From NCBI GenBank assembly GCA_038063455.1, contig JBBTVB010000001.1:13719-77718 (forward strand): a stretch of DNA of 64,000 bases, given 5' to 3'. The translations under genes and the position numbers were made by a program. The DNA comes from Patescibacteria group bacterium. Lineage in GTDB: Bacteria > Patescibacteriota > Patescibacteriia > PEXW01. Below are positions 10,449 to 59,463 of the stretch, one piece after another. Under the pieces are notes generated by a model, which saw only the letters and a list, made by a program, of their open reading frames with translations, ran no database searches and was not told where the DNA came from. The number at the start of each line of letters is the position of its first letter. Position 1 is the stretch's first letter.

Positions 10449-10571
10449 TGTTTCCTCCACAGACTTTTGATTTTTTTATATCTTACTTACTTTGACGCTA
10501 ACAACTTTAGGGTGCCATTATTATGCTGTCAAGCTTAAAACCCGCTGTGTTGGCGGGTTTCGAAGCAGGGG

Positions 10572-11387: not shown

Positions 11388-11422
11388 TTGTCTCCACAAA
11401 CATATTCCCGTACCCTAGAGGC

Positions 11423-12004: not shown

Positions 12005-12068
12005 TATGTTGTTGACTTTTTACTAGGCACGTATATTATGTAGTCAAAATACATATTGAGGAGGAAGC

Positions 12069-12212
12069 ATGTGGGAATTAGTAGGGTTTATAGTCACTAG
12101 TATTGTTCTCTCTTTTGTTGGAGCTCTGATCCTTAACTTTCGAAGCTGGGAAGACCTACGTGAGGCTTTTGGGAGATCCAAAAGTAAGACCGACAACCCT
12201 ACAAAACAGTAG
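12069..12212 (+). CDS. small single-TM peptide (47 aa, MWELVGFIVTSIVLSFVGALILNF...)
   Basis: Absent from the ORF track (under 60 aa). Has GAGGAGGAAGC-ATG, an upstream TTGACT-16-TATTAT, and a terminator overlapping the stop codon. Confidence 0.6.
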   Translation: MWELVGFIVTSIVLSFVGALILNFRSWEDLREAFGRSKSKTDNPTKQ

Positions 12213-15814: not shown

Positions 15815-16432
15815 CTATTTGCTGTTTGCGAAACGAGCTGCAGGATCATTTTTCAGCCATTCGAGACCGAAATAGCTCCAGTGTAGGATCACTTTGCCCG
15901 CGCGCACGTTGAGACACGGGACGCGGAGGTGACCGTCGCGGCGCCGCACAACTGATTTCCAGAAGTATACGGTTTTATTACCGAATATCTTTTGAAATGC
16001 AGGTACGCCGAGCTTTTGGATCGCCAGAGCGTCAGTGAGGCCAAGGCAGGACTCGAGCATGGCTTTCTTCTTGAGGTAGTCATATATGATCAGTCCATTG
16101 GTGACGCCTCTTTTCTGGTCGTTATGAAGCCATAACTCTACTGCAGTAGTAAGGTCATACTCGCTGGAACCGGTATTTTCCAATTCCGGATGCATCAGTA
16201 CTTTCAAGCAGGGGTAGGTTGGGCTAACCGAACGGTCTACACGGACGATGGTGTTGGCAGAAGTTTTTTCTTTGTGTGTAACCTTTACAATTTCTGAACG
16301 TCCATGTAGGACATCGAGCATTCCTGGCAAGTTATTACACTGACCAAGAAGAGTTATATCTGCAGCAGTAAAGCCTGCCGCTTCCAATTTTTCCATCAAC
16401 TGATGGACTTGACCTTCTGAATACGAAGACAT
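15815..16432 (-). CDS. hypothetical protein (206 aa) with a C-terminal module related to the CDS at 45720 and 46565
   Basis: AAAGGAGAGAAGAC-ATG at 16432. The tail ...DGHLRVPCLNVRAGKVILHWSYFGLEWLKNDPAARF aligns with ...EGYRCVAYAELNDFGRNLGLRGFGDRWFGQCRF of the 45720 CDS. Confidence 0.7.
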   Translation of the reverse strand: MSSYSEGQVHQLMEKLEAAGFTAADITLLGQCNNLPGMLDVLHGRSEIVKVTHKEKTSANTIVRVDRSVSPTYPCLKVLMHPELENTGSSEYDLTTAVELWLHNDQKRGVTNGLIIYDYLKKKAMLESCLGLTDALAIQKLGVPAFQKIFGNKTVYFWKSVVRRRDGHLRVPCLNVRAGKVILHWSYFGLEWLKNDPAARFANSK

Positions 16433-16626
16433 GTCTTCTCTCCTTTTGTGGCACATGTGCCGTTGTTTTTTTGCTAGCGGGCTATCTCTGTGGTAGCCAT
16501 AGCCAGAAAACACCGAATGCATCTCGGTCACTTTTGGCTATGGCCATTTATTGTAAGTGGATTGTCAATGTGCGCGGAATTACAGCCCACCTTAGCACCG
16601 TGGGATGGTTTGTCAATATTCCCTTT

Positions 16627-16766: not shown

Positions 16767-16805
16767 AGCTTTACAGTCCTACCGCTTTACAGCTATCTTC
16801 CCCTC
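16767..16805 (+). promoter_or_regulatory. conserved 39-nt start-proximal module (AGCTTTAC...CAGCTATCTT-N6-ATG), putative promoter of a leaderless prfB mRNA
   Basis: Same motif at the same 39-nt distance from the ATG as upstream of the arnT-like gene and smpB. Confidence 0.5.
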
Positions 16806-17904
16806 ATGCCCAGTCTCACCGACCAGATCCGCGACCTCCAGGCGAAGCTTGCTTCGACTTGGGGGTTACTTTGACCTAGACCAGCGTCGGCAAAAACTCG
16901 GCGAACTTGACGACCAGATGGCGCAAGTTGATTTTTGGGCTGACCAGGAAAACGCGCGCAACGTAAGCCAGCAAGCTGAAGCCTTGCGCAAAGAAGTGGG
17001 GGAGTGGCAACAGCTGAAGGCCAACCTGGATGACCTAGGTAATTTAGCTGACGAGACTCATGAAGACGCGAAGCTGACCAAAGAAATTACGGAGCAGTTT
17101 GCCCAACTGAAAAAGCAGTTTGACGGTTTGGAGTTTCAGGTGCTGCTCGCCGGCGAGTACGATAGTAAGGACGCAATTTTTTCCGTCCACGCCGGCACGG
17201 GTGGTACCGACGCCCAGGATTGGGCCGAGATGCTGCTACGTATGCTGTTGCGTTTCTGTGAACGCCAAGGCTGGAGCGCGCGCGTCGTTGATGAATCGAA
17301 GGGCCAAGAAGCGGGTATAAAAAGTGCGACCGTTATTGTCCGTGGTCGATGGGCCTATGGCTACTTGAAGAGCGAAGCAGGTGTGCACCGCCTGGTGCGT
17401 ATTTCACCCTACGACGCGGAGAAGATGCGCCATACCTCATTTGCGCTGGTCGAAGTGTTACCCGAGTTTGCGGATGTGGAAGAGCAGGCGATTGACGAGA
17501 AAGATTTGCGCGTGGATACGTATCTCTCATCTGGTCACGGTGGGCAGAGCGTGCAGACGACGTACTCGGCGGTGCGTATTGTGCACATCCCGACGGGCAT
17601 TACCGTGACCTGCCAGAACGAGCGCTCGCAGCGGCAGAACCGCGAGACCGCCATGTCTATCCTGCGCGCCAAGTTGCACCAGCTCAACATTTCCAAGCAG
17701 CAAGAAGAGAAACAGGCTTTGCGCGGGGCCTACAGCGAGGCGGCCTGGGGCAACCAAATTCGCAGCTACGTGCTGCAGCCGTACCAGCTGGTGAAAGACC
17801 ACCGCACCAGCGTGGAAACCACCAACCCGGACGATGTGCTCAATGGCCATTTGGAACCGTTCATGGAAGGCTACCTGCGCTGGCAGAAGGGTAAAGGCAA
17901 ATAA
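16806..17904 (+). CDS. prfB: peptide chain release factor 2 (programmed +1 frameshift at 16869-16875)
   Basis: Frame 0 reads MPSLTDQIRDLQAKLASTWGLL then TGA. The GGGGG-TTA-CTT-TGA-C site shifts into the frame encoding DLDQRRQKLGEL...SPYDAEKMRHTSF...GGQSVQTT. The ORF-track extension back to 16471 is non-coding read-through. Confidence 0.92.
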
Positions 17905-17941: not shown

Positions 17942-18571
17942 TTAGTAACCATTGCTTGTTTTAGCGAATGTTTTGATGTGTTCCAGTGCATCGGCAGCAG
18001 CTTGAAAACTGACGAATGCCTGGGCATCAATTTCATCTACCATGGGGCCGAGCACGGCTTGCATTTTTGGCAAACTTGGCCGTGTGTTAATTGCGCCGAA
18101 GCAGCCATTCCACAGTAGCAGCAATCTGGGCAAGGGCTGCCGCGTGAGCGTCAGTGTGGCATCACTCCGCTGCTCGTTAAGTAGGCAAAGGATAGTGCCA
18201 ATATTGCCGCGGTTAATATCGAGGCAGATAACTGTCGATGCAGAGCTTACAAACTGGCTTCGCTCCAGCGATGTGCCGTGTCGTTTTGTGTAGTAGCCGT
18301 CATTTTCTGTCCAGCGAGAGAGTACGCTGGTATGGATGTCATGGATGTAATGGGTAGTGACGTGCCGGAGCGATGACTCAAACGCCCCTTTACGCACTGC
18401 CTCAGATGTTCCACTTCCAGCCCCAGTAACTAAAATTTTGTTACCGGGTATGCGAGCTGGGCGGGCATGTGTACCTTCAGTATCTGGCATTGAGAGCTCT
18501 TTACCAAGCAGTATTGCAATGTTATTGATGTCCTGGTTTTCTTGGCGTTTGCCGAGTATGGCAATGTTCAT
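17942..18571 (-). CDS. LOG/SLOG-like Rossmann-fold nucleotide-binding protein
   Basis: GGAGGAACA-ATG at 18571. LVTGAGSGTSEAVRKGA and RGNIGTILCLLNE resemble the LOG-family GxGGxG and PGGxGTxxE motifs. Confidence 0.55.
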   Translation of the reverse strand: MNIAILGKRQENQDINNIAILLGKELSMPDTEGTHARPARIPGNKILVTGAGSGTSEAVRKGAFESSLRHVTTHYIHDIHTSVLSRWTENDGYYTKRHGTSLERSQFVSSASTVICLDINRGNIGTILCLLNEQRSDATLTLTRQPLPRLLLLWNGCFGAINTRPSLPKMQAVLGPMVDEIDAQAFVSFQAAADALEHIKTFAKTSNGY

Positions 18572-18687
18572 TGTTCCTCCACTGGTTCGTTTTGTTGCTT
18601 CGAACCTAGCATAGCTTGATATTGCTAGCAAATTGACAGGCGCGACGGTGGTCGGTACTCTAGGTATGCAAGAGGGCGAGGTCCACT

Positions 18688-20659: not shown

Positions 20660-20854
20660 CGGCAGAGGTTGACAAATTGACCACTTCTTGCTACTGTACA
20701 GCGTTACAAACAATAGGAAACTATTGGCTGTAGCCTCGGCCACAAGCTGAGCGTTCGTTGACAAGTGAATAACAAGTTAGCGAAAAAGATAGTAAATAAT
20801 ATGAAGTAACGTTATAAACGACTTCCGCCAATGGCGAGGAGTAGGAGGTTTCTC

Positions 20855-22684
20855 ATGTCTGAGCAAAACCGTGGTCCAAGAAGAGGTCCACAAAATCACG
20901 ATGACCGCCCAAAAGGTGGTAATCGCACACAAGATGATCGTACTGCTATCCATGCATTGCAAATCACCAAGTGTGTCTATGATCCCTACATTTCTGCCCT
21001 GGTGGTAGAAGTACAAGCAGTTCGCGGGAAAAAACCCTGGCGAACCACAATGCTTGAGCTCCTCGTCAATGGTAGTCCGGTTTTCACTGACACAACCAAT
21101 TGGTCTGGCATTTTGAAGTTCCTTATTAAGGATTTTAAATTGCCGATTAATAAACACCGCGTGACAGTTCGTGCGGTTGGCATGCTAGATGGTGACGAAA
21201 ATGAATTAACCATCCAAGCTTCTGAGCTTTTTGATGTCCTGCCCACGAGTGCCGTACCATCAAATGCTGTGCGCGCAAGTGTGCAGCATGTAGTAGAGAC
21301 ACAAGAGAACGCCTTTGCGGTTACTTGCGTTGTTTCCACTACACGTAACGACATTGTTGTGCCAGATGTGAAGGTGGATTTAGTAGGTTATTCCGAAACT
21401 GTACAGACCGTACAAACTGGTCCGCATGGTGAAGCGAAGGCGGTTCTCATTCTTCCATTTTTGGAAGATGGATCAAAAAGACTCGTACCTATCCGTGCAA
21501 TTGTGCAAGGGGTTGGTACAGTATTTTCTGATATTCTTGAATTGATTCCCCCGCCCGAACCCATCCCGTATCATGTCGATTTTAGCGACCCAGAGCAGAT
21601 GGAAACAAAAGGGACGTATACGGTTCGGGCAAAGGCCGAGTATAAAGACGGGCAGCCAGTGAAAGGTGCGCGTCTTACTGTCACCGGTTTTGGTAACGAG
21701 AAGCCCTTCGTTACCAATCTGCATGGGGTGGCAATCCTTGAGCTTGCTTGCGATCCGAACACCGATTGGACGAAATTCCGAGTCGATGTTTCGGGCAACA
21801 AGCAGAGCCAAATCTACGATTTACCCAGCGCGCTCGGGCAAGAATCCCGCGCTGTAAAGAGTGAAGAGAAGTTGTTGCTTCCCGTCCCTGTCCCGCAGCA
21901 TTTCATGCAGGCTTTCCGTCGTGGGGCCAGGATTATTCAGTACACACCGAATACCCAGCCGCCGCCATCGCCTGGTTTACTTGTGAGCAATCTTGCCGTA
22001 CCTACAGTTAAAGCGAGCCGCTTACAGCGCAAGACAAAAGCATTTACGCGTTTTGTCCGACGTAACGGCCGGCCGACTATAGTGTATGGTGTGGTTCGCC
22101 CGATTGCTGGCCTCCTCGGTTTTTGCTGGGGCACCAACAATCGACGTTCAAACATCCTGCTGTTTCTGGGCGTGCCAGTAATGTTTGCCTGGGTTGCCTG
22201 GACCCTTATGCTTGCCGTGCAAGCCTACCTCCAGCATCCCGTAAGCGAGCAATTGCCGAATGTGGTGGCGGGTGTCGAAACCACCCTCACTGCATACCGC
22301 AGCGTACCAATGAGCATTGGGAATTTTTTCCTGCTTGTTGGTGGAACTCTACTGCTCTCGCTGTTTGCAATGCCATACTGGGTAATTGCGCGGCGGGAAG
22401 AAATAGAGCGAGGTTTCAAGACTATCAAGCACCGCTTACAGCCTCATTCTGGGGGCGTGATTGAGCTTGAAGAGCCTGGCTTAGCAAAGCAGTGGGTGCA
22501 AACGTTACTCGCCAACCAGAAAAGACTTTCACAACAACCAACAACGAACACTGCAAATGCAACACCTGTAACTGTGGCGACTGCGCCAGCAGCGAGCGGC
22601 CATGGAACCTTGCTGATGCTTTTGACCATTGCGGAAGTTGTTGATTGGGTGTACACGATTTACAAAAAGCTTGTGAGAAGGTAA
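20855..22684 (+). CDS. large hypothetical protein: N-terminal beta-sandwich-like repeats, C-terminal TM helices
   Basis: GGAGTAGGAGGTTTCTC-ATG at 20855; AT-richer by eye; no family recognised. Confidence 0.7.
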   Translation: MSEQNRGPRRGPQNHDDRPKGGNRTQDDRTAIHALQITKCVYDPYISALVVEVQAVRGKKPWRTTMLELLVNGSPVFTDTTNWSGILKFLIKDFKLPINKHRVTVRAVGMLDGDENELTIQASELFDVLPTSAVPSNAVRASVQHVVETQENAFAVTCVVSTTRNDIVVPDVKVDLVGYSETVQTVQTGPHGEAKAVLILPFLEDGSKRLVPIRAIVQGVGTVFSDILELIPPPEPIPYHVDFSDPEQMETKGTYTVRAKAEYKDGQPVKGARLTVTGFGNEKPFVTNLHGVAILELACDPNTDWTKFRVDVSGNKQSQIYDLPSALGQESRAVKSEEKLLLPVPVPQHFMQAFRRGARIIQYTPNTQPPPSPGLLVSNLAVPTVKASRLQRKTKAFTRFVRRNGRPTIVYGVVRPIAGLLGFCWGTNNRRSNILLFLGVPVMFAWVAWTLMLAVQAYLQHPVSEQLPNVVAGVETTLTAYRSVPMSIGNFFLLVGGTLLLSLFAMPYWVIARREEIERGFKTIKHRLQPHSGGVIELEEPGLAKQWVQTLLANQKRLSQQPTTNTANATPVTVATAPAASGHGTLLMLLTIAEVVDWVYTIYKKLVRR

Positions 22685-26088: not shown

Positions 26089-28171
26089 TTGGTGGCGCAA
26101 TGCGTCGGCGACGTTTGACCAGCCAGGTCCCGCCGATCAGCAGTAGTACACTACAGCCGCTTACCAAGGCGCCCAAGCGAACGCTGGTTGGTTCGTAGCG
26201 GAAGCTGATCGTATGCGTGCCAGTGGGTACGCTTACGCCGAGGAAGCTGGTGTTGACCTTTAGTACCGGTGCTGTTTTTTCATCAATGCGGGCTTGCCAC
26301 CCCGGATACCACTGCAGGTTAGTAACGACAACGGTCGAACCCGTTGTTTTTACTTCAGCTTCCAGGTTCGTTGCTTCCTGCGTATGTATTCGAATAGTAA
26401 CCAACGCACTCGCATCTATAGCAGGCACAGCACCTGTCACCAGTGCCTCGGTGGCTGGATTAATATTCTGTATCGCCGCGGGGTTACTGCTAGCGACGAG
26501 TCGCTGCACTGCATGGATGGGCGGCACGGGGGCAATGTGCTCTGCCAATGTCCAACGGCCTTGCGTGTTAAGCGCGCGCCAATCTGGCGGCAGGGGCTGG
26601 AGGGTCAAAACCGTTTGTGTCCCGGTTACGGCAAGGACTTGGGTATTTGGTGATCGCACCACTAGCTGATTCTTTTTTACCAGTTGGCTGTTTGCACGCC
26701 ACAATTCTAAGTAGGACAGCGGGTAGAGCGAATCATACCCAAAGATTGTGGGTATGCCATAGGCCATGTACTGGCTGAGGTCGCTATCTCTCGACCAAAG
26801 TCGCCCAGTTGTCGTGGCTTGCGCGGTTGCTTCCAGGATAGGTGATGTGGGGTACAGGTCGGCCCGAGGCCCAAAGGGCAGAACGTGCTGCCATTGCCAA
26901 AGTCCAACCACAACTAGCGCAGCCAGTGCAATTCTGCCGCCCCAGTGCTGGAAGCGTTGGCCAAGTATTTCTGCACCCAGGCCAGCGAGAATTGCCGCAC
27001 CAAACGTCAAGAAAAAGGAAAAGCGCCATACGGTGGCTAAGGCAAGGGGAGGGATAGTTTGGCTAATGAGCAATCCCTTAAGTGTGGGAAACGCAATGAA
27101 TACACCAACGACGGCTACGGTGCTAGCTGCAACCCACCAAAGTCTTCGTCGCCAGGCTGCAAAAGAGAGCATGGCCAACAACAGCACCACGGGGCCAATG
27201 TACAAATTTCCTTCCAGGTAGTTTGCCGGACCACGGAAATTTTTTGCGTTCCCAAGAATGTTCGGGTCTGCCAGAGTGGCAAAGGCGCGGAGGTTGCGGG
27301 TTTCAAGATTAAACAGCACACTTGGCCGCACTAACTGCGACCAACGTGCAGGCGCTGGTTGCCGATACGCATAACGCGAAGCCTCTGCAATAGGCAGTAA
27401 TTGTATTGCACTCAAACCTATGCCAAGAACGAAAGCAATTGTAAAAAGGCCAAGACGTTTTTGCCATTGGTTGCGTTGCCAGAAGGCCACCGCCCAAATA
27501 CCGCTAACCAGCATAACCAGCAAGCCAATTTGCACTTGGCCACTAAAAAATGTCGCCATGGTAAGCAGGGCAATACCCACGACCCAACGCCAAGCCAGGG
27601 TACGGTGCAAACCTTGAATGGCCCACACAAGCCAGGGTAGCCATGCGGCGACCGCGCTCATGATGCTGGTGGTGCTCCACAATACAAATGGTGCACTTAA
27701 TACATACGCCAGACCAGCAAGGATACGCGATGACCGGCGCCAGCCCCAAGCTCCAGCGCACACGTACAGTCCAAGGCCACCAAGTAGGAATTGGCCGAGT
27801 ATGGAGAATGTAAAGCTCACCGCTGGTGGCAAAGACCAGAAGAGCGCCTTAAGTGGCGAGAGTACTGCTGCCTGGCCATTGGCAAAGAACGGTGTACCGG
27901 CAAAGATGAGCGGATTCCAAAGCGGAAGCTTGCCTTGCCGAATAGCCGCGTTCGTAAAGACGTGGTATGGGTAGGCTTGTACCAGTGAGTCATGTAACAA
28001 GCTGTGTTCTGGCCCATCTGTAGTGATAACCGGTAAAATCTTTGAAAGGTAGCCGACGCCTAAAGGCACATAGCCACGCAGGACGGGCCCAAACAGAAAG
28101 AGTGTGACTCCAGCAAAAATGATGACGGCAACTACGGGACCACGTCGAAAAAATGCAAGAATGCGTGACAT
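26078..28171 (-). CDS. YfhO-family membrane glycosyltransferase-like protein
   Basis: Polytopic protein with GKLPLWNPLIFAGTPFFANGQ and a C-terminal WYPGWQARIDEK...GTHTISFRYEP block typical of YfhO. Confidence 0.8.
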   Translation of the reverse strand: MSRILAFFRRGPVVAVIIFAGVTLFLFGPVLRGYVPLGVGYLSKILPVITTDGPEHSLLHDSLVQAYPYHVFTNAAIRQGKLPLWNPLIFAGTPFFANGQAAVLSPLKALFWSLPPAVSFTFSILGQFLLGGLGLYVCAGAWGWRRSSRILAGLAYVLSAPFVLWSTTSIMSAVAAWLPWLVWAIQGLHRTLAWRWVVGIALLTMATFFSGQVQIGLLVMLVSGIWAVAFWQRNQWQKRLGLFTIAFVLGIGLSAIQLLPIAEASRYAYRQPAPARWSQLVRPSVLFNLETRNLRAFATLADPNILGNAKNFRGPANYLEGNLYIGPVVLLLAMLSFAAWRRRLWWVAASTVAVVGVFIAFPTLKGLLISQTIPPLALATVWRFSFFLTFGAAILAGLGAEILGQRFQHWGGRIALAALVVVGLWQWQHVLPFGPRADLYPTSPILEATAQATTTGRLWSRDSDLSQYMAYGIPTIFGYDSLYPLSYLELWRANSQLVKKNQLVVRSPNTQVLAVTGTQTVLTLQPLPPDWRALNTQGRWTLAEHIAPVPPIHAVQRLVASSNPAAIQNINPATEALVTGAVPAIDASALVTIRIHTQEATNLEAEVKTTGSTVVVTNLQWYPGWQARIDEKTAPVLKVNTSFLGVSVPTGTHTISFRYEPTSVRLGALVSGCSVLLLIGGTWLVKRRRRIAPPTRA

Positions 28172-28395
28172 GCTATTAGCCTAGGGGATTTTGCTAACAA
28201 CGACAAACGCTCAGTCACCACGTTGTGGCCCCAATGGGTCGCCAGCTTTGATTCCTTCAATACGGGGTCCCCGCGAATGTGGTGCGCACCCTGAGCTTGT
28301 CGAAGGGGAGCACGCGTTCGTGGGGTAAAGCGAGGATTCGCACGCAACCCGAAGAACCACCTTCGGTGGGGCGAAGGGTGAAGAGCGAAACGAGC

Positions 28396-28900: not shown

Positions 28901-28972
28901 AAAATTGAGCTAGCCGATTGTAACACGGCCTTTAGGACATGCCAAGGTCGCTAGTGTTGTATACTGTAACGT

Positions 28973-29326
28973 ATGCAACACATTCAAGGAAGCAAGGCAG
29001 AATGGACGCACAAGCCAGGGTATAGCAAAAAAGTCTTGGCGACTCCGGAAGTGCTAAAGGCGCCTGGCCTTTTGGTGCAGGAACTTTCGATTGCTCCAGG
29101 GCAAGTGGCCGCGAGCCACTACCACAAGCAGCAAGTGGAAATTTTTTACTTCCTCAATACCGCTGGGGAATTTTGGGTAAACGGCGAAAAGATCCCACTG
29201 GCAGCCGGGGATATTCTCATCGTCGAACCCAATGACAAACACGAAGTTCGGAATACCAGCAATGAGCCGTACCGGTATGTAGCGTTCAAGTATAATTGGG
29301 TAGACGACGATTACTTTGAGGGCTAA
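28973..29326 (+). CDS. cupin-domain protein
   Basis: Two cupin motifs (G..AASHYHKQQVEIFYF...G and GDILIVEPNDKHEVRN). TATACT lies 7 nt before the ATG. Confidence 0.8.
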   Translation: MQHIQGSKAEWTHKPGYSKKVLATPEVLKAPGLLVQELSIAPGQVAASHYHKQQVEIFYFLNTAGEFWVNGEKIPLAAGDILIVEPNDKHEVRNTSNEPYRYVAFKYNWVDDDYFEG

Positions 29327-30915
29327 GGTGCAATGCGTACCAGCTGGAAATCTGGCGAGCTCAGCAGTAGGGTGCCAGGGAATGGCACGATTCCGTTTTG
29401 AATTTTTTCTAAAACCAGACCGCTGGTTGGTTGCAGGCCTTCAATGTGCACCAGCGTGGTCCCGGGTTCATTGCCCAGGTAGTAGCGAATAGTTGGTTCA
29501 TGGTGCACGTAGATATTCTGTATGTACAAGGTTTCCGGCTGTTCGGCCTGGAGGATTTTTCGCGTGGCGGGTAAGAGCGGTTCGCCTCGCTGCAGCATAA
29601 GTTCAGCCCGTTGCCCCGCCAGTGCGAGCGTGCCCACCCAGAGGAGTACGGCCATGGGTATTACTCGCCAGAGTAGTCGGGATTTACGGTAGTGCGCAAC
29701 AATAGTTAGCGCCACAGTCAACAGGCCTATACCCAGGGCGGTAAGCCACCGTCCGCTCTGGCCATCCAGCCCAGCAACATAGGCTTGGGGCACCAGCCAA
29801 TGGGTCAGGCCGTCATCGGGCACCATGCTCGGCAGCCGCCGCACGAATGCGACCACGCCCCACCCAATGAGCGCCACGGTCGTCCAGCGCAACGGCCAGG
29901 CAAACCAGCGCGTGAGCCACATTCCCATGACGAGTGCAAGAATCGGGTAGAGGGGTAGGAGATACCATGAGCTTTTGGTTGCGTTCACCGAGAGCAGGAT
30001 GATTCCGCTGGCGAGGTATATTAGGAAGAAGGTTAGCAGTTGGTCGCGTTTTTTTAAGGCCCGGCCGATTGCCCAGACGCTGGCTGGCAGGGCAAAGGCG
30101 GCAAAGGGGAAGAAGCGCTGAATAAAAACTTTCCAGTACCAGCCTGGTCCGGCCGAGAAGCCGTACAAGTTTGTTGAAGATCGTTCCACTACATCGTTGC
30201 TAATAGTGGTTTGTATAAATGTAAAGCCCCGAAGCAGCAACTGACTCACGATCCAGGGCGCGATAATTATTAGCCCTACACTAATGGACTGTAACCAAAT
30301 TTTTTTTGAGTATGTATTAAAGCCTCGTGTAAAAATGAGGTGGAGCAAGATTGGGATGCCGGCAAATGCAATGGCCGTAAATTTTGTAATAAAACCTAGT
30401 CCCAGCGCAGCCGCGACTAAGAGTAACCAGCGCGGCTTTGACCAACTCTTCCAGTAGGCCCACAGGCTAAGGACCGTAAAGAAGGTTAGCAACCCATCAG
30501 TCTCGCCAGTGCGGAAGGCGTGGCCAAAAAGGTATTTTCCCGAAAGAAAAACCATCACAGTCAACCAGATCGTTGAATGCTTTTTACTCATCTGCCATGC
30601 CCACAGTCCTATTAGTAACGTGGTCAGCGTGCCGGCAAGTGCAGACCAGAAGCGAATGGAGAACTCGTTTTCACCAAGCACGGCAGTTGCCACACCGCCC
30701 AACCAAAAACGCAGGGGCGGTTTCCAATAGTACGGCTCGTGGTTCCAGGTGAGCTCCAGCCAGTTACCGGATTCGACCATTTCGTGCGTCACTTGCGCGT
30801 GGATCGCCTCATCCCATTTTTCCAGCGGGTTGGTGCCCAAGCTCCAGAAGAACATGACGCTGGCAAGCACGGCAAGAGCAATGAACGACAGGAGTACGGA
30901 ACGAGGCGGAATCAT
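29323..30915 (-). CDS. ArnT/PMT-family (GT39/GT83-like) membrane glycosyltransferase
   Basis: Polytopic protein with N-terminal EKWDEAIHAQVTHEMVESGNW...YYWKPPLRFW typical of this family. Confidence 0.85.
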   Translation of the reverse strand: MIPPRSVLLSFIALAVLASVMFFWSLGTNPLEKWDEAIHAQVTHEMVESGNWLELTWNHEPYYWKPPLRFWLGGVATAVLGENEFSIRFWSALAGTLTTLLIGLWAWQMSKKHSTIWLTVMVFLSGKYLFGHAFRTGETDGLLTFFTVLSLWAYWKSWSKPRWLLLVAAALGLGFITKFTAIAFAGIPILLHLIFTRGFNTYSKKIWLQSISVGLIIIAPWIVSQLLLRGFTFIQTTISNDVVERSSTNLYGFSAGPGWYWKVFIQRFFPFAAFALPASVWAIGRALKKRDQLLTFFLIYLASGIILLSVNATKSSWYLLPLYPILALVMGMWLTRWFAWPLRWTTVALIGWGVVAFVRRLPSMVPDDGLTHWLVPQAYVAGLDGQSGRWLTALGIGLLTVALTIVAHYRKSRLLWRVIPMAVLLWVGTLALAGQRAELMLQRGEPLLPATRKILQAEQPETLYIQNIYVHHEPTIRYYLGNEPGTTLVHIEGLQPTSGLVLEKIQNGIVPFPGTLLLSSPDFQLVRIAP

Positions 30916-30954
30916 GTAGGCAGGATAGCTGTAGAGCTGTAGAGGCGTAAAGCT
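30916..30954 (-). promoter_or_regulatory. conserved 39-nt start-proximal module upstream of the arnT-like gene
   Basis: Minus strand reads AGCTTTACGCCTCTACAGCTCTACAGCTATCCTGCCTAC-ATG. Confidence 0.5.
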
Positions 30955-32316: not shown

Positions 32317-32586
32317 TTACTTGCTTTCCAGGGTGTCTTTCAGGATGGTACGGAGGGCGATTTTACCTTTCGTGGTTTTGAAGTACGCCTCGCGCCGTCG
32401 GGCTTCTGGAGCAGTTAGGAAGCCTTCAAAGAAGATGAGTTTGAATGGACGACGGTTTGCCGTCGAAATATTCTGGCCGGCGTTGTGTGCTTTTAGGCGT
32501 TTCTCAAGGTCTCCCGTGGAACCGATGTAGAGTTTTCGATCCTTGAGGCTTTGGAGCGCGTAGACGTAATGAAAGTCCGTAATCAT
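32317..32586 (-). CDS. GIY-YIG nuclease superfamily protein
   Basis: YVYALQS...KLYIGSTGDLEKRLKAHNAG. Confidence 0.85.
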   Translation of the reverse strand: MITDFHYVYALQSLKDRKLYIGSTGDLEKRLKAHNAGQNISTANRRPFKLIFFEGFLTAPEARRREAYFKTTKGKIALRTILKDTLESK

Positions 32587-32604
32587 CTATACATTATAAC
32601 CGAA

Positions 32605-33405: not shown

Positions 33406-33858
33406 TTAACCCTTTTGCCGCATCGCGCGGGCAACGTCACGCGACACTTCTCGTTTTTTAATCGATGCTCGTTTATCATGTGCTTTTTTCCCACGCGCTA
33501 GGCCAATGCTCACTTTTACCAAGCCGCGGTGGGTAAAGAATTTTAGCGGGATAAGCGTGCAGCCCGCGCTGTGCATTTTTCCAATGAGCGTAGAAATCTC
33601 TGAGCGCTTCATCAGCAAGTGTCGGTCGCGCTCAGGATTGTAACCGACTTGGACAGTAGCTGCGGGTTTGTACGGCGCAATGTAGGCGTGGACAAGCCAC
33701 AGCGATCTTTCCCGCAAACTCACGTATGCGCCCTGCAGGTTCATATTGCCAGTTTTGGCTGACTTTACTTCCGGCCCGGTAAGGACAATGCCAGCATCGT
33801 ACGTTTCTAGTACGTCGTAGTTAAAGGTCGCTTTTTTGTTGCGGGCCAGTTGAGGCAT
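33406..33858 (-). CDS. smpB: SsrA-binding protein SmpB
   Basis: NKKATFNYDVLETYDAGIVLTGPEVKS... Confidence 0.95.
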   Translation of the reverse strand: MPQLARNKKATFNYDVLETYDAGIVLTGPEVKSAKTGNMNLQGAYVSLRERSLWLVHAYIAPYKPAATVQVGYNPERDRHLLMKRSEISTLIGKMHSAGCTLIPLKFFTHRGLVKVSIGLARGKKAHDKRASIKKREVSRDVARAMRQKG

Positions 33859-33897
33859 AGGAGAAGGGTAGCTGGAGAGCTATAGAGCCGTAAAGCT
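33859..33897 (-). promoter_or_regulatory. conserved 39-nt start-proximal module upstream of smpB
   Basis: Minus strand reads AGCTTTACGGCTCTATAGCTCTCCAGCTACCCTTCTCCT-ATG. Confidence 0.5.
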
Positions 33898-33990: not shown

Positions 33991-34410
33991 TTAGACACAT
34001 GCAGGTAGACGTTCCGGCAGGAGCCCACTGGTTAGCGGGTGATGGCGCAACACAGCCTCGAAGTCATCATCGGTCTGGGCACCGAATGCCAGTCCCAGGA
34101 CTTGAAGTGCTTCGGAGCACATGTACATTTCGCTCGTTGGGTTGCCAATTACTTGGCAACGTTGCTTGATTGCCCGGGCTATGGCCCTGCCAATGGCGAC
34201 AGCGTTATTTGAACGTACCGGCATAAAGCTCGGCGGCAAATCGGTTGCCGCAAGCAGCCTTGTAAATGCCATACTCATGCGCCCAGAGTCGCTCACAAGC
34301 GCCTTACGAAGAGCTTCTGGAATTTCATTCATCTTGACCTCAAAACGGATCTCTTCAAGAAGCGCGTGAATGATTGCGGCAAAGAATGGACTAGAGTTCG
34401 AAGCCTTCAA
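33991..34410 (-). CDS. hypothetical protein (139 aa)
   Basis: GAGGAGG lies 7 nt upstream of a TTG start at 34410; helical; no family recognised. Confidence 0.6.
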   Translation of the reverse strand: MKASNSSPFFAAIIHALLEEIRFEVKMNEIPEALRKALVSDSGRMSMAFTRLLAATDLPPSFMPVRSNNAVAIGRAIARAIKQRCQVIGNPTSEMYMCSEALQVLGLAFGAQTDDDFEAVLRHHPLTSGLLPERLPACV

Positions 34411-34515
34411 AGTACTACCTCCTCAAGGTTTGATTTTCGGTCTGTTTTAAGGTGCTTTCTACCGACATCAAATATTACAAGAGTGAGCGTATTTTGTCAA
34501 TGCTATACTTTAGCC

Positions 34516-36138
34516 ATGAACATTCGTACTGAACTGCAGGAGTTGATAGCCAAGGTTGCCGGAATGCCGCAGCCGAAAATTGAACGCACACCGCGCCCGG
34601 AGTTTGGCGACTACGCTACCAACGTCGCCTTAGGCGTGGCGCAAAAGCAAGATGCCTTGCCGCGCGACGTGGCCCAGCAGTTGAGTTTGCGACTAGCGGC
34701 AACGAAGGCAGAGTGTATTCAAAAGGTGGATGTGGCTGGTCCAGGGTTCATCAACATTACCTTGAGCGACAAGTGGTTAGTTGCCCAGGCCAAAGGCCTG
34801 CAAAAGTCTGCGGCATCACTAAGCAAGTCAACAGCGTTCAAGGGCCAACACGCGCACTTAGAATTCATTTCGGCTAACCCCACTGGACCCCTCACGTTGG
34901 CTAATGCCCGCGGCGGCTTTTTGGGCGATATACTGGGGAACGTCCTGCAGCGGGTCGGCTACAAAGTCTATCGCGAGTATTACGTGAATGACCGGGGCAA
35001 CCAGATTAACGTGCTGGCCGAGTCGGTGCTGCGCCGGTACTTCCAGCAACAGGGGATTACCATTGATTACCCAGAGACGTGTTACCAAGGCGTGTACATC
35101 GAAGAGTTGGCCCGCAAGTTAAAGCTGCCGAATTATAAAATGACCGACGTGGCTAAACTCGCCGAGATCCGCGACAAGATTAAAGACAAGGTCGTTGCCA
35201 CGATGCTCAAAGAAATTCAACGCGTGGTTACGAAGGTTATGGGCATCCAGTTTGATAATTGGCTCTCGGAAAAGGCGCTGGTTGCCTCGGGCGTGCTGGA
35301 CAAACTTCTAGCCCAGCTCAAAGCGCACAACATGGTCTACGAGAAAGACGGTGCGACCTGGCTGGCAACCACAAAGTATGGTGACGACAAAGATCGCGTG
35401 CTCGTCAAAGCCGATGGCGAAATGACCTATTTCCTGCCCGACATCGCCAACCACTGGTTGAAATTTACGAAGCATAAGGCAAACATCGGCATTAACATCC
35501 TTGGCCCTGACCACCATGGCTATACCGGCCGTATGCGGGCTGCACTTGCAGGTTTGAATATCGACCCAAAACGCTTCTCCCCACTTATTTTTCAAATTGT
35601 GAGGGCGATTAAAGACGGCCAGGAGCTACGAATGTCAAAACGCCGGGGAACTTACGTAGAAATTGAAGAAATTGTTCAGGACGTTGGCTTGGATGCCGCC
35701 CGGTTTTTCTTTTTGATGTATGACACGACCACACCCCTAGATTTCAATTTGGATCTGGCCAAGGAGCGGAGCGAGAAAAATCCGGTGTACTATATCCAGT
35801 ATGCGCACGCCCGGCTGTGTAGCATTTTGGCCAAGGTGAAGAAACTACCCGCCGCAAAACAGCGGCTTGATGTATTGCACCCCGCCAGCCGAAAGCTTAT
35901 ACTGGAATTCCTTCACTGGCCGGAAGTACTGGAAGATGTCAGTCGCGACTACGGTGCGCAACGGATTCCGCAGTACGCCTTGCACCTGGCCCGTACATTC
36001 CATGAGTTTTACACCCAGGTCCGCGTGATTGATAATGACAAGGTCCAGGCATTGCCACTCGCGCTGGTTCGCGCTACAAAGAATGTACTGGCAGACGTGC
36101 TGGCAACCATGGGAATAAGCGCGCCAACAAAAATGTGA
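34516..36138 (+). CDS. argS: arginine--tRNA ligase
   Basis: Class I aaRS HIGH-type SANPTGPLTLANARGG and MSKRRG (KMSK), plus a DALR anticodon-binding tail. TGcTATACT lies 6 nt before the ATG. Confidence 0.95.
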   Translation: MNIRTELQELIAKVAGMPQPKIERTPRPEFGDYATNVALGVAQKQDALPRDVAQQLSLRLAATKAECIQKVDVAGPGFINITLSDKWLVAQAKGLQKSAASLSKSTAFKGQHAHLEFISANPTGPLTLANARGGFLGDILGNVLQRVGYKVYREYYVNDRGNQINVLAESVLRRYFQQQGITIDYPETCYQGVYIEELARKLKLPNYKMTDVAKLAEIRDKIKDKVVATMLKEIQRVVTKVMGIQFDNWLSEKALVASGVLDKLLAQLKAHNMVYEKDGATWLATTKYGDDKDRVLVKADGEMTYFLPDIANHWLKFTKHKANIGINILGPDHHGYTGRMRAALAGLNIDPKRFSPLIFQIVRAIKDGQELRMSKRRGTYVEIEEIVQDVGLDAARFFFLMYDTTTPLDFNLDLAKERSEKNPVYYIQYAHARLCSILAKVKKLPAAKQRLDVLHPASRKLILEFLHWPEVLEDVSRDYGAQRIPQYALHLARTFHEFYTQVRVIDNDKVQALPLALVRATKNVLADVLATMGISAPTKM

Positions 36139-37923: not shown

Positions 37924-38012
37924 ATAATTTAAAATTCATGCTACTCCTTGACAGAGTTGCGTTTCGGTGATAGATTAGCCGGAAACATAAAACAACATTG
38001 CAGGAGGAGTAT

Positions 38013-38363
38013 ATGCCAAATGTCTTGGTGCAGTATAGGGTTACGGAGCATGGCACCCCATCATTGCTTTTGAAGGCCGATCTGGCAAGAATTGTTGCCA
38101 ACAGGCTGAATGTCGGGGAAGCTTCACCGATAAGCTGCGACGATGTTACTGTCGTGTTCCAAAAGTTCGGCTTCAATGACGTACATAAACGTGATGTGGT
38201 AATACAGGTAACTGCGCACGACTTCCCTGATCGTGTCCGGGAGCACAAGGCAATTACAGAAGCGATCGCTGACGACATTGTGCCGACGCTGAAAAATTTT
38301 AGCTTCGGAGTGATCGTCAACTTGACGCCGCTGGAGTGGGCCGCTCGCGAACCCAAAATGTAG
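38013..38363 (+). CDS. hypothetical 116-aa protein, possibly tautomerase superfamily (N-terminal Met-Pro)
   Basis: CAGGAGGAGTAT-ATG at 38013. MPNVLVQY... together with a MIF/CHMI-like length. Functional assignment is weak. Confidence 0.6.
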   Translation: MPNVLVQYRVTEHGTPSLLLKADLARIVANRLNVGEASPISCDDVTVVFQKFGFNDVHKRDVVIQVTAHDFPDRVREHKAITEAIADDIVPTLKNFSFGVIVNLTPLEWAAREPKM

Positions 38364-38414: not shown

Positions 38415-38470
38415 CATTCCTCTTGCCAATGAGGCTGCTTTATCGTAAAGTATATTTTGCACATACGGCT

Positions 38471-41400
38471 ATGAAGAAAAAGGCAGCGCAGCAAGAAAAG
38501 GCCGCGACGCAGGAACCGCAAATGCGCGCCGCCCCCGTGAACCACTCACAGAGTTCGGATTCACGGCAAACCCCCTTCCCCGCACTGGAGGAAGCGGTTT
38601 TGCAATTGTGGGAGCAGGAACAGGTATTTGCCAAAACCTTGGCGCAGACCAAAAACGGTCCGCGCTTTGTCTTTTACGAAGGTCCGCCCACGGCCAACGG
38701 CAAACCCGGCATCCACCACGTACTGGCGCGTGCGTATAAAGATGTGATTGTTCGCTACAAAACCATGCGCGGTTTTTACGTGGAGCGCAAAGCCGGCTGG
38801 GACACGCACGGCCTGCCCGTGGAGTTGCAGGTGGAGAAGGCCCTAAACATTTCGGGCAAGCAGCAAATTGAAGACATTGTCCCCGGTGACAAGCGCGCGA
38901 GCATTGAAAAATTCAACCAAGAGTGCAAAACCAGTGTCATGGCGTACCGGCAGGACTGGGAAGCGCTAACCCGCCGCATGGGCTACTGGCTCGATGTAGA
39001 CCACCCGTACATTACCTACGATGCAGGCTACATCGAGAGTGTGTGGTCGGTGTTGAAACAGGTGTGGGATAAAGGTCTCGTCTACAAAGGCCATAAAGTT
39101 GTCCCGCACTGCCCGCGCTGCGAGACGGCGCTGTCTTCACACGAAGTCGCGCAGGGCTATAAGAGCGTTATCGACACGTCGGTGTACGTAAAGTTTAAAG
39201 TGACGAACAGCAACGTGAAAGCTATTCAGAACCTTACGAGTAAAGGCGAAGACGTTTTCATCCTCTCCTGGACCACAACGCCGTGGACGCTGCCGGGCAA
39301 CGTCGCCTTGGCGATTGGTAAAAAAATTGCCTACCAACTGGTCAAAGCGGATGGCGCGTACTTGGTCGTTGCGAAAGAACGCCTGCACGTCGTGGGCGAA
39401 GATGCCAAAGTGCTGGAAGACTTGAAAGGCGAGCAACTCATTGGGACGACGTACGAGCCACTGTTTGCAGGCGCGGTAGAGCGAGGCAATGCACAAACTG
39501 CCTGGACGGTGTTGGACGCTGCTTTTGTAAACACAACCGATGGTACCGGCGTGGTGCACACCGCAGTGATGTATGGCGAAGACGACTACCAACTCGGAGC
39601 CACGGCGGGTTTGCCGAAGCAGCACACCGTGGATACGACGGGAAAATTTTTACCCTCGGTTCCCAAATGGGCCGGGAAGTTTGTGAAGAGCAAAACCGTT
39701 GAAACCGAAATTATTACCGACCTTAAAGAACGTGGCTTGCTTTTTAAAGTGGAAGCATACACGCACGACTACCCGTTCTGCTGGCGGTGCAGCACGCCGC
39801 TGCTCTACTACGCTAAGGATAGCTGGTTTATTAAGATGTCGGCCGTGCGGGACCAGCTCATAAAAAATAACCAGACCATCAATTGGGTGCCGGCGCACTT
39901 GCGTGACGGCCGCTTCGGCGAATGGCTGAAAGACGTGAAAGACTGGGCCATCTCCCGCGAGCGTTACTGGGGCACGCCGCTGCCGATCTGGGAGTGCGAG
40001 CAGTGCCAGGCGCAGAAAATGGTGGGGAGCTTTGCTGAGCTGAACCTCCAAGAAACTGGCGTTGAAGTTATGATTATGCGGCACGGTTTTTCGAAGAAGA
40101 ATGAGCCGTCTATTATTCAAGGGAACCTTGAAGAAAGCGAGGCATGGGGGTTAACCGCAGCAGGGCAGGCCGAGGTACAAAAAACCGCAGTCAAACTGGT
40201 TGGCAAGGTTGACGTTATTGTGGCATCAGATTTTGGTCGTACGCGCGAGACCGCCGCCATAGTCCAAAAAGCAACTGGCGCCTCGGTCCACTATGATGCT
40301 GACTTGCGGGAAATTTACACTCCGGCTTGGGAAGGCCAGCTGGTTGACGAAGTGCTGCGTACGGTACCCGAACCTATACCGCTCAATTACCGTATGGGTG
40401 CGGGCGAAACGTACTACGCTCTCCGCGAACGCATGCAACGTGCAGTGCAGCGCGCTATTCGCCAGCACCCAGGCAAGCGCATTGTGTTTGTTTCGCACGG
40501 CGACCCGTTGTGGATCCTCAAGTGGTCATACTCGGACGTACCAGAAAACACGTATCACGAAACGGCATACCCGAAGAAAGGCGAAGTGGAGACCCTCCAC
40601 GTTCCCGTGCAATTCGATCCCCACCGGCCATACGTTGATGACCTAACGCTGGTGTGTGAAAAATGCCAAGGCACCATGCGCCGGGTGCCCGAAGTACTGG
40701 ATGTGTGGTTTGACTCGGGGGCTGTGCCCTATGCCCAGTGGCACTATCCATTTGAACAGCTGGCGCGCGTGGATGAAGGCACGAACTTCCCAGCAGATTA
40801 CATTGCTGAAGCTATTGACCAGACCCGCGGGTGGTTTTACACCCTACTCGCCATTTCCACGTTGCTTGGCAAAGGCGCGCCCTACAAGAACGTCATTTCG
40901 CTGGCGCACATTTTGGATGCCAAAGGCCAGAAAATGAGTAAGTCGAAAGGTAATGTGGTAGAGCCAAACGCCGTCATGAATACATATGGAGCTGATGCAT
41001 TACGACTCCATCTTTTTGGTATGAACCAGGCGGGGGATAATAAGCTTTTCGACGTGCGCGACGTGGATGGCGTAGTAAAGAAAACCTTGTTGATTTTTTG
41101 GAATGTGGTGACGTTTTATATAACGTACGTTGTAGAAGCTGCGCAAGATCCTTCGTCCCGCCGCGGCGGGACTCAGGATGACAATGGGAGTAAACCCGAG
41201 CACGTTATGGACCGGTGGATTTTGGCGCGGCTGGCGCAGGTAACCAAGCTGGTAGCCGACAAGTTGGATGCCTACGATCCAACTACAGCCGTGCGCGGGC
41301 TGCAGGAGTTTATAACCGAGCTTTCCACGTGGTATTTGCGCCGTAGCCGCGACCGGTTGCGCACCAAGGGCGGGGAAGAAACTGGCGCTATCCTTGGTCA

Positions 41401-45627: not shown

Positions 45628-45719
45628 AATCTGTAAATTTCTTTGAAAAACGTGGGCACTAACGCCCACCACTGTGGTTCCGACAGCATTCGGACAAAAC
45701 GAAGATAAAGGAGCTGATC

Positions 45720-46301
45720 ATGGCTAGTACCAAGATCGGGGACACGCGGGAGCAAGAAACTCTGCGCGTGATTGCGGACATTACCATCAAGTTGGCCAAC
45801 GGGTCACTCACTCTCGAATCGGCAAAACGGTTTGCAAAGAAGGAAAGTCCCTTTACCATGCCGCAGAAGCTGTCTGTCGACGGCAGCGAACCACGCTTTC
45901 AGAGTATCTCGAAAGACGCGTACTACTACGTGAACCCGAATTTGAAAATCGAGCACTTCCCGCTAACGAATCCGGCGGTTCGCGACGTGGAGTACGAAAT
46001 TGTCGAATTTAACCATGACCCGACGACGCAGGAAATTCTGGACGCTTGCGAGACGGGTACCCTGCGCCGACCCGAACGCGACGAAGCTGAAATCTACTTT
46101 GACAATGTTCCAGACTCCAGAGACCAGCTGGGCAAATCACCGATTGTTGCTTTGTGCGGCTCTCTCCTAGAGCTCGAGGGCTACCGGTGCGTCGCGTACG
46201 CTGAGCTCAACGACTTCGGTCGCAACCTGGGCCTCCGCGGCTTCGGCGATCGCTGGTTCGGGCAGTGCCGTTTCCTCGCCGTCCGCAAGTTTGCACTTTG
46301 A
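45720..46301 (+). CDS. hypothetical protein, 'RFLAVR-tail' family (193 aa)
   Basis: AAAGGAG RBS. C-terminus PIVALCGSLLELEGYRCVAYAELNDFGRNLGLRGFGDRWFGQCRFLAVRKFAL. Terminator at 46348-46382. Confidence 0.75.
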   Translation: MASTKIGDTREQETLRVIADITIKLANGSLTLESAKRFAKKESPFTMPQKLSVDGSEPRFQSISKDAYYYVNPNLKIEHFPLTNPAVRDVEYEIVEFNHDPTTQEILDACETGTLRRPERDEAEIYFDNVPDSRDQLGKSPIVALCGSLLELEGYRCVAYAELNDFGRNLGLRGFGDRWFGQCRFLAVRKFAL

Positions 46302-46564: not shown

Positions 46565-47077
46565 ATGACCCCGAAGAATATACAGCCCGAAGAGTACTCA
46601 ACGGGCAGTGTCACGGATGGCACCCTGCACATTACTGACGGCTCTCTCCTAGAGCTCAAGGGCAACCGGTACGTCGCGTACGCTGAACTCAACGACAACG
46701 GTCGCAACCTGAACCTCAACGACTTCGACAATCGCTGGAACAGGCAGTACCGTTTCCTCGCCGTCCGCAACTCCCTTTACGTGCACAACCTCACCCATCA
46801 AAAATGGTGGGGTTGTTTGTGGTTGTTTTTGCTATACTCTATGCATGCCCGATGCGCTTGCCAAAACTGCTACCCGGTTCATCCTTCGCGAATTTGTGGG
46901 GGATATTTTGCTGTTCCCGGTATGGTGGTTTGGCAAAGGCCTGCAACGCGTTGGCCAAGCGACTTGGGCGCGCCAAGTGCGGTTTACGAACCGCAGCCGC
47001 TGGAGCCCCAAAGTGTGGTTCCAGAATATTTTTGTGCCCATGTACGGCGACTACTCGCGCAGCGGCCGGGCGATTAG
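46565..47077 (+). pseudogene. truncated paralogue of the 45720 CDS lacking an in-frame stop before its terminator
   Basis: Codons 46565 to about 46770 encode MTPKNIQ...GSLLELKGNRYVAYAELNDNGRNLNLNDFDNRWNRQYRFLAVRN, highly similar at the DNA level to the 45720 CDS tail. The frame then runs through a terminator hairpin (46786-46830) and overlaps CDS 46845..47234. Confidence 0.45.
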
Positions 47078-54624: not shown

Positions 54625-54763
54625 TTTGAAAGAGCTCCTTTTTGCGCTTCCTTTGCGCAGTTTTTTGGGTTACGGTCTGTTTTCCGAAGTTGGTAGAATA
54701 TCAGAAAGTACCTATTTGTCAAGCAAACTTTCCACATTGAAGGCCCTAAGGTAGAATGCCCGC

Positions 54764-58677: not shown

Positions 58678-58695
58678 TTTTTTATCCTGACGCAT

Positions 58696-59357: not shown

Positions 59358-59463
59358 GCATTTACTACCAACCCGGGAAGAGGGGTGGGGAATGAAACAA
59401 AAAGGTGGCTTGTTCTAATGTCTTTTAGGGTATAAGATCGAGGCGCGTTTTATTGTCATTTTT

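Follow-up and report, generated by a model that had tools for sequence, protein, structure and literature searches.

Actinobacteria, Deinococcus-Thermus, Mycoplasma, and archaea all provide well-documented cases of leaderless initiation, which needs an AUG and proceeds without a Shine-Dalgarno (SD) sequence. For Deinococcus-Thermus, de Groot and coworkers are said to have described in 2014 a "−10 region adjacent to ORF" (open reading frame) and the leaderless mRNAs that go with it. Here, we analyzed the gene starts in a 64-kb stretch (the window) of contig JBBTVB010000001.1, from a Patescibacteria group bacterium of the candidate phyla radiation (CPR), in which −10-like TANNNT hexamers placed 6 or 7 nt before the ATG and SD sequences mark distinct classes of genes. 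Several described systems are close to this arrangement. In Deinococcus, TANNNT lies 6 to 7 bp upstream of about one third of the genes, and a GGAG ribosome-binding site is found on others (Zhong et al. 2025, PMC12340547). In group C of the GeneMarkS-2 classification (Actinobacteria, e.g., M. tuberculosis), a Pribnow box lies 6 to 8 nt from first genes, 25 to 50% of the transcripts are predicted to be leaderless, and an SD ribosome-binding site is found at the same distance in other genes, including operon-internal ones (Lomsadze et al. 2018, PMC6028130). The group C genomes that use code 11 are almost all high in GC (10.1101/2022.07.25.500264). "TA-led" genes were reported by Zheng et al. (2011, PMC3160421). 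The SD-poor Bacteroidota and Cyanobacteria (group B; Nakagawa et al. 2017, PMC5397173) are reported to have no SD pairing at most conserved genes and strong SDs at a minority, the anti-SD presumably being retained.

In the window, TANNNT stands exactly 6 nt (11 genes) or 7 nt (3 genes) before the ATG of 14 of the 49 genes with curated starts, the choice of which was partly manual, compared with 1.4% of the 1,754 other ATGs (P = 6e-15). Under a motif-blind rule, by which the first in-frame ATG was taken for 45 ORFs, 10 starts carry the hexamer at spacer 6 and 3 at spacer 7, whereas the other spacers between 0 and 40, which lie in the same upstream regions and thus provide an internal control for the peak, average 1.03 (Poisson P of about 1e-7). 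When ATGs are counted at each distance from all 1,355 TANNNT in the window, no peak is seen (22 at spacer 6 versus about 19 elsewhere). This start-agnostic count is uninformative rather than negative, the signal being present only at real gene starts. The original prediction, made from the letters of this stretch, had placed a −10 hexamer 6 nt before the ATG of argS, rmuC, the coding sequence (CDS) at 46845, prfB, smpB, and an arnT-like gene, and 7 nt before that of the cupin gene (28960) and the CDS at 58696. All of these are present, the enrichment at 6 to 7 nt that it proposed to look for was found within the window, and nrdR, cobA, yfhO, the GIY-YIG gene, uvrD, and the AAA_15 gene lengthen the list (Table 1).

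The start codon is ATG in all 14 genes (TTG occurs in one SD-led gene), and each is preceded either by a divergent gene or by no fewer than 87 nt of intergenic sequence. At none of the 10 operon-internal starts is the motif found at spacer 6 or 7. The leaderless-type genes make up about 29% of the genes of the window and roughly 40% of the first genes in transcription units. Five further genes (ftsA, the DUF4430 gene, rpmI, the DUF11 gene, and a class II aminoacyl-tRNA synthetase gene) have the hexamer 9 to 11 nt upstream, which would imply leaders of only 2 to 5 nt. Support for the chosen starts comes from the NrdR Zn ribbon, which begins at residue 1, from the Arg_tRNA_synt_N domain (Pfam), which begins at residue 2 of ArgS, and from tblastn alignments that begin at residue 1.

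The promoter character of the hexamers was examined in a set of 19. A −35 element (TTGnCn or TTTACn) lies at 16 to 18 nt in 10 of them, compared with 8.3% of random TANNNT (P = 7e-7), and two more (argS and the CDS at 46845) carry an extended −10 TG. The consensus is TATACT/TATAAT-like. In an independent scan, the same promoter grammar was found elsewhere, as TTGACG-17-TACAGT at rpmI and TTGCCA-17-TAAAGT at ileS, and TTGACA with the same 17-nt spacing precedes three SD-led genes (Table 1). Across up to eight related Patescibacteria metagenome-assembled genomes (MAGs; L001 to L003, L016, L017, and L045 to L047, in a clade spanning 42 to 56% GC), the spacing is retained at orthologues while the sequence changes. 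At argS, TGnTATACT-N6/7-ATG is kept in six close genomes although the flanking DNA has diverged; TATAAT/TATACT-N6 is found in the more distant L045 and L046 (42% and 46% GC) and N9 in L047. The smpB hexamer reads TACCCT, TATACT, or TAGACT within the clade, with spacer 6 in four of the relatives, 7 in L045, and 8 in L046, and that of the PMT gene reads TATCCT, TACAAT, TAGTAT, or TAAAAT. In L047, which is Kerfeldbacteria-like, TAGACT-N6-ATG occurs at smpB and also at a VanZ gene. Because the hexamers have −35 or TG support, share the grammar of promoters elsewhere, are restricted to first genes and to ATG, and keep their spacing where their sequence is not kept, we read them as promoters, quite probably σ70-type −10 boxes that abut the ORF; this grade is a joint one with the whole explanation given below. 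The first transcribed base would then be the A of the ATG or lie no more than one or two bases from it, and the resulting leaderless mRNAs would be translated from the AUG without an SD.

Three of these promoters resemble one another in sequence. Those of prfB (16768-16805, plus strand), PMT (30922-30953, minus strand), and smpB (33865-33896, minus strand) have in common the block (GGCGA)GCTTTAC(A/G)G-N14-CAGCTA(T/C)C(C/T)T-N6-ATG, which is not expected by chance in any of them. The sequence GGCGAGCTTTAC is common to prfB and smpB without a mismatch, and PMT has other −10 sequences in relatives. The block may reflect either a regulator site common to these genes or the duplication of a promoter cassette, and would link two ribosome termination/rescue factors.

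The second class comprises 12 genes with GGAGG, AGGAG, or AGGAGG 4 to 8 nt before the start (12 of 49 versus 1.0% of the other ATGs; P = 5e-14), two of whose starts (16432 and 20855) were chosen with the SD in view. Eleven of the sites had been predicted and are all there; the twelfth, at 9342 on the minus strand, was added here. Duplex free energies (dG) computed against the anti-SD CACCUCCU are bimodal, with values from −6.5 to −13.8 kcal/mol in the SD class and mostly above −4 in the other genes. The SD-led genes appear to be leadered, because their own promoters lie upstream. These canonical promoters would be situated about 30 to 60 nt upstream (about 165 nt in one case), and translation would proceed via the strong AGGAGG-type SD. 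All 12 genes lack a Pfam domain, as do 3 of the 37 others (Fisher P = 5e-9). PHROG and PADLOC scans of these orphans gave no matches, which leaves a phage or defence origin unsupported.

Two of the SD-led genes have further features. The orphan hyp20855 follows a noncoding block of about 190 nt (20667-20854, plus strand) that has counterparts in L012 (9800-10000) and L013 (6070-6267) and is near-invariant in the three genomes, although the flanking proteins are only 50 to 83% identical. Three hairpins, one of them with a GAAA tetraloop, are predicted in the leader (fold z-score, −3.8), and its 3' helix could pair with the first of two SDs. An Rfam search returned noise only, and nhmmer found no second copy in the window or in the fetched sequences. 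This leader is a candidate for a new cis-regulatory RNA, for which three near-identical sequences give no power to detect covariation. The ATG at 20831 was rejected as the start of hyp20855, the codon being destroyed in L013. The other gene, hyp34410 (33991-34410, minus strand), belongs to a fast-evolving family of 134- to 150-aa proteins of unknown function that always lie between smpB and argS. Its members in L001, L002, L003, L017, L045, and L046 are 12 to 20% identical to the window copy and often start with TTG; every copy is SD-led except that of L045, where no SD was seen, and the family is absent from L047.

A third class has neither signal. The SD is confined to the 12 leadered genes above, and the core genes that are not of the leaderless type lack it, including all 10 operon-internal ones (ftsZ, nrdJ, the DUF6580 gene, the MBL-fold gene, hyp22690, rplT, NUDIX, recO, the DUF11 gene, and clpB). 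In the operon-internal genes, the dG is at least −4.6 kcal/mol (at least −3.2 in nine), and the gap to the upstream gene is −23 to +37 nt. Absence of an SD had been predicted for ftsZ, nrdR, htrA, ileS, and recO, and their dG values are at least −1.7 kcal/mol, compared with −6.5 or lower for the SD class. Leadered genes without an SD in several genomes are (i) ileS, with a conserved promoter and an SD-less leader of 12 to 18 nt in three genomes, (ii) htrA, with TGGTATACT kept about 30 nt upstream and a leader lacking an SD, and (iii) the NHL gene, with a conserved A-rich leader of 18 nt. For ileS, the ATG at 38522, which has a weak AGGA, was rejected as the start because the M-K-K-K at 38471 is conserved. 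Translation of this class presumably starts either through termination-reinitiation coupling or with ribosomes that bind G-poor, unstructured leaders independently of an SD, and the missing SD at the operon-internal genes suggests that reinitiation or coupling is used heavily. The ribosome probably keeps a functional anti-SD (CCUCC), because the SD consensus complements CCUCCU at every base and because prfB keeps the canonical SD-stimulated +1 frameshift cassette (TGG GGG TTA CTT TGA C), in which 22 in-frame codons are followed by CTT TGA C.

The infC gene (32266-32311, minus strand) has no ATG, GTG, or TTG before its IF3_N domain. Its start is likely the ATA at 32268 (MSTKRFRINLQIR...), which has no SD and follows a TATACT box at a distance of about 32 nt; a noncanonical start is expected for IF3 autoregulation.

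The likely explanation of these data, in our judgment, is that leaderless core starts, SD-led leadered genes of a flexible kind, and an SD-less class coexist in one genome. A number of points weigh against it. The leaderless status is inferred from the sequence only, and the data come from 64 kb and about 10 partly orthologous loci rather than from a whole genome. Seven of the 19 hexamers have neither a −35 element nor a TG, several are weak matches (TAGCCT, TAGGCT, TACCCT), that of the AAA_15 gene sits in AT-rich DNA and may be a chance match, and L002 does not conserve the motif of the DUF975 gene. The 3' end of the 16S rRNA was not found in the window or in the 47 fetched loci. Finally, the fit to group C is incomplete, because internal genes of that group use SDs and none of the 10 does so here.

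Among the rival explanations, the one that survives best was part of the original prediction, namely, that the SD-bearing, AT-richer genes are recent horizontal acquisitions which brought their own SDs into a genome whose native mode is leaderless. We consider it unlikely. The lack of Pfam, PHROG, and PADLOC matches in all 12 genes would be in keeping with it, yet no integrase, repeat, or tRNA-flanked island structure was seen. With regard to composition, the SD genes are AT richer within the window, as had been claimed (median GC at third codon positions [GC3], 0.51 versus 0.635 for the others; Mann-Whitney P = 0.0014), but the offset is about 0 clade-wide, and the window genes of lowest GC lack an SD (NUDIX, 0.40; Y1_Tnp, 0.41; AAA_15, 0.37). 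In relatives, moreover, SD-led genes of variable slots have normal GC3; these are glmS (start MCGIVG), Band_7, a dcd-like gene, an MFS transporter, and an ABC ATPase.

The evidence from synteny is likewise divided. Four of the six SD genes with synteny information (hyp16432, hyp18571, hyp38013, and hyp45720) have no counterpart in the corresponding slot of relatives, whereas the families of the other two, hyp20855 and hyp34410, are syntenic across the clade, the latter lying between smpB and argS in seven genomes. In L012 and L013, hyp20855 is syntenic with an identical SD and leader, even though the protein is only 50 to 55% identical compared with 72 to 83% for core proteins. Just three homologues of it were found among 5.8 billion proteins; two of them, those of L012 and L013, come from within the clade and lie on contigs with the same gene order, so that nothing points to a foreign donor. 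In 10 clade loci, 33 leaderless-type genes are shared and 5 are unique, whereas among SD-led genes 23 are unique and 17 to 24 shared (Fisher P of 5e-5 to 5e-4), in an automated gene call that is noisy (shadow ORFs and internal false SD starts) and was used only for this contrast. Thus, of the claim that the SD marks recent acquisition, the enrichment in variable slots stands, while the two syntenic families, the SD genes of normal GC3 in relatives, and the SD-less genes of lowest GC speak against it.

That the TANNNT is instead a non-SD ribosome-binding or standby element in leadered mRNAs, as in GeneMarkS-2 group B or X, is in our view very improbable. The leadered core genes ileS, htrA, and NHL do initiate without an SD, but the hexamer is absent from all operon-internal starts, is accompanied by a −35 element at 17 to 18 nt or by an extended TG, fits the −10 consensus of clearly leadered promoters of the same genome, and is found with ATG starts only. 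Chance or an annotation artefact, by which AT-rich intergenic DNA and a free choice of starts would mimic a −10 box at 6 to 7 nt, can hardly account for the data, for although some hexamers are weak, starts were partly chosen by hand, and automated calling is noisy, the motif-blind first-ATG rule yields the same peak over flanking spacers that act as its internal control, the enrichment has a P of about 1e-7 to 6e-15, and orthologues spanning 42 to 56% GC conserve the spacing.

Returning to the dual-class explanation, a better generalization of the data would be that conserved syntenic genes are leaderless or SD-less and that fast-evolving or variable-slot genes are leadered and SD-led. The SD would then mark leadered genes of a flexible, rapidly evolving pool rather than foreign DNA as such. 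Accordingly, the original prediction of two initiation styles with leaderless translation as the native one holds for the distinct SD class and for the −10 boxes at a leaderless distance, but not for the SD as a foreign marker. Its alternative, that the SD genes are a separately regulated class, is plausible. A leader permits post-transcriptional control, as is suggested by the long conserved leader of hyp20855, and the SD-led genes are possibly regulated in this way. More tentatively, SD-independent initiation might be the default for conserved genes, with a functional SD almost only at fast-evolving, lineage-specific, or variable-slot genes, such that the initiation mode tracks gene age or turnover, a proposal about which we are more doubtful than confident. 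If true, it would add a third architecture to those of GeneMarkS-2 groups B and C, one that may be connected with the reduced ribosome of the CPR.

As in Deinococcus-Thermus, two motifs are found within 20 nt before ORFs, the motif is conserved at orthologues, and gene callers misplace such starts (here, those of ArgS in L045 and of the MBL-fold gene in L012 and L013). Unlike in Deinococcus-Thermus, the host is a mid-GC (42 to 56%) patescibacterium, the SD is skewed to fast-evolving or variable genes, and operon-internal and short-leadered core genes lack it. The dual Pribnow-box/SD layout, with the Pribnow box at first genes, is shared with group C, but the clade differs in its GC content from the code-11 genomes of that group. 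With the SD-poor lineages it shares conserved genes that are mostly SD-free and a minority with strong SDs; those lineages are not known to be characterized by −10 boxes next to the ATG. The window showed no evident A-rich non-SD motif.

Full-text searches of the literature for leaderless together with Patescibacteria, CPR, or Saccharibacteria gave no relevant result. Therefore, the lineage appears to be a new host of a known architecture, within a huge uncultured radiation with reduced ribosomes in which the leaderless layout is apparently undescribed. Current understanding is not overturned; the correlation of initiation mode with gene conservation is a small, testable case.

The window has a GC content of 53% and derives from a CPR bacterium related to Parcubacteria and Kerfeldbacteria MAGs. 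Its ArgS is 78 to 82% identical to proteins from three Patescibacteria-labelled MAGs (L001 to L003), and its SmpB is 76% identical to a Parcubacteria-labelled relative and 58 to 60% identical to Kerfeldbacteria-labelled ones. A metagenome scan yielded only two further close relatives. Pfam scans identified dagK, ftsA, ftsZ, nrdR, a class II ribonucleotide reductase, cobA, a polysaccharide deacetylase, htrA, prfB, comEC, an NHL-repeat protein, a YfhO-like protein, a cupin, a PMT/ArnT-like glycosyltransferase, an infC-rpmI-rplT operon, smpB, argS, a GT4 glycosyltransferase, ileS, NUDIX, recO, a ClpB-like ATPase, a class II aminoacyl-tRNA synthetase, tatD, rmuC, and a UvrD-like helicase, leaving about 15 ORFs without a domain. 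A transfer-messenger RNA (tmRNA) and two tRNAs were found with Rfam and ARAGORN.

Table 1. Initiation-related sites in the window. Nx, number of nucleotides between the hexamer and the start codon; distances after SD motifs are to the start codon; −35 distances are in nucleotides.
Feature	Positions	Strand	Signal and remarks
Leaderless-type: nrdR	3483..3497	+	TAGCCT-N6-ATG, ATG 3495
Leaderless-type: cobA/BtuR	11411..11425	+	TACCCT-N6-ATG; −35 TTGTCT at 17 nt
Leaderless-type: prfB	16794..16808	+	TATCTT-N6-ATG, ATG 16806; −35 TTTACA at 18 nt
Leaderless-type: yfhO-like gene	28169..28183	-	TAGGCT-N6-ATG, ATG 28171; −35 TTGTCG at 17 nt; identical in L002
Leaderless-type: cupin gene	28960..28975	+	TATACT (28960-28965)-N7-ATG, ATG 28973; TATACT-N6 in L001
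Leaderless-type: PMT/ArnT-like gene	30913..30953	-	TTTACG-18-TATCCT-N6-ATG, ATG 30915; TACAAT-N6-ATG in L001 and L002
Leaderless-type: GIY-YIG gene	32584..32598	-	TATAAT-N6-ATG, ATG 32586; same in L002
Leaderless-type: smpB	33856..33896	-	TTTACG-18-TACCCT-N6-ATG, ATG 33858
Leaderless-type: argS	34501..34518	+	TGCTATACT-TTAGCC-ATG; extended −10 TGcTATACT, TATACT 34504-34509, N6, ATG 34516
Leaderless-type: CDS 46845	46830..46847	+	TGcTATACT (TGCTATACT)-N6-ATG; same in L003
Leaderless-type: rmuC	54752..54766	+	TAGAAT (54752-54757)-N6-ATG, ATG 54764
Leaderless-type: DUF975 gene	58683..58698	+	TATCCT-N7-ATG
Leaderless-type: AAA_15 (PtuA/AriA/OLD-like) gene	59451..59466	+	TATTGT-N7-ATG; AT-rich context, weakest case
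Leaderless-type: uvrD-like gene	61427..61441	+	TAGACT-N6-ATG; TACAAT-N6-ATG in L002
SD-led orphan	8811..8826	-	GGAGG, 8 nt, ATG 8813
SD-led orphan	9340..9354	-	AGGAG, 7 nt, ATG 9342
SD-led orphan	9667..9679	-	GGAGG, 5 nt, ATG 9669
SD-led orphan	10446..10458	-	GGAGG, 5 nt, ATG 10448
SD-led orphan	10966..10978	+	AGGAGG, 4 nt, ATG 10976
SD-led small ORF (47 aa)	12059..12071	+	AGGAGG, 4 nt, ATG 12069
SD-led orphan hyp16432	16430..16444	-	AGGAG, 7 nt, ATG 16432; slot without it in L012
SD-led orphan hyp18571	18569..18580	-	GGAGG, 4 nt, ATG 18571; slot holds SD-led glmS in L012 and L013
SD-led hyp20855 (609-aa orphan)	20667..20857	+	TTGACA-17-TACTGT, near-invariant leader of ~160 nt, double SD AGGAGTAGGAGG, ATG 20855
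SD-led hyp34410	34408..34500	-	TTGACA-17-TAATAT, leader, AGGAGG (34418-34423), 7 nt, TTG start 34410; divergent from argS
SD-led hyp38013	37948..38015	+	TTGACA-17-TAGATT, leader of ~30 nt, AGGAGG, 5 nt, ATG 38013
SD-led orphan hyp45720	45709..45722	+	AGGAG, 6 nt, ATG 45720; slot without it in L001 and L003
SD-less leadered: ileS	38423..38473	+	TTGCCA-17-TAAAGT, SD-less leader of ~12 nt, ATG 38471
prfB programmed +1 frameshift site	16860..16875	+	TGGGGGTTACTTTGAC; SD-like GGGGG stimulator

Start annotation is affected by the presence of two signals. In L045, ArgS (6852-8708, minus strand) was called as 618 aa from a TTG, with the TATAAT-N6-ATG start about 76 to 77 codons in. An apparent SD before the MBL-fold gene of L012 (7897) and L013 (4184), an internal AGGAG-GTG, was rejected as a caller artefact, and the true ATG upstream aligns with position 19799 of the window. 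An exact look-up found no recorded product for ArgS starting at 34516 or for FtsZ starting at 1801, and both genes probably have different starts in the deposited annotation. SD-trained callers misplace starts in MAGs of this clade, and start annotation and N-terminal analyses need a dual model.

Three low-GC genes occupy slots of differing occupancy. Y1_Tnp (IS200-like; 37409-37885, plus strand) and NUDIX (42090-42623, plus strand), both of about 40% GC, are missing from L001 and L003. Their presence in the same slots of L047 makes them old residents that some genomes have lost rather than recent arrivals, their composition notwithstanding. The AAA_15 gene (59464-61251, plus strand), the lowest in GC (37%), matches PtuA (Septu), AriA (PARIS), and OLD-family defence models. 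Its slot between DUF975 and uvrD is variable, with other genes there in L002, and the gene is likely a defence-gene insertion.

The genes for CobA (a corrinoid adenosyltransferase), DUF4430, and DUF6580 (11423-13431, plus strand) are near the B12-dependent class II ribonucleotide reductase gene (3976-7512, plus strand), which suggests a small module for the salvage or uptake of cobalamin; Rfam detected no cobalamin riboswitch in the window. In IleS (38471-42067, plus strand), a histidine-phosphatase (His_Phos_1) domain is inserted in the catalytic domain at about residues 534 to 700 counted from the start at 38471, corresponding to residues 556 to 722 of the stop-to-stop ORF 38405-42067. This insertion is absent from L003 and L045 and present in the window, L001, L046, and L047.

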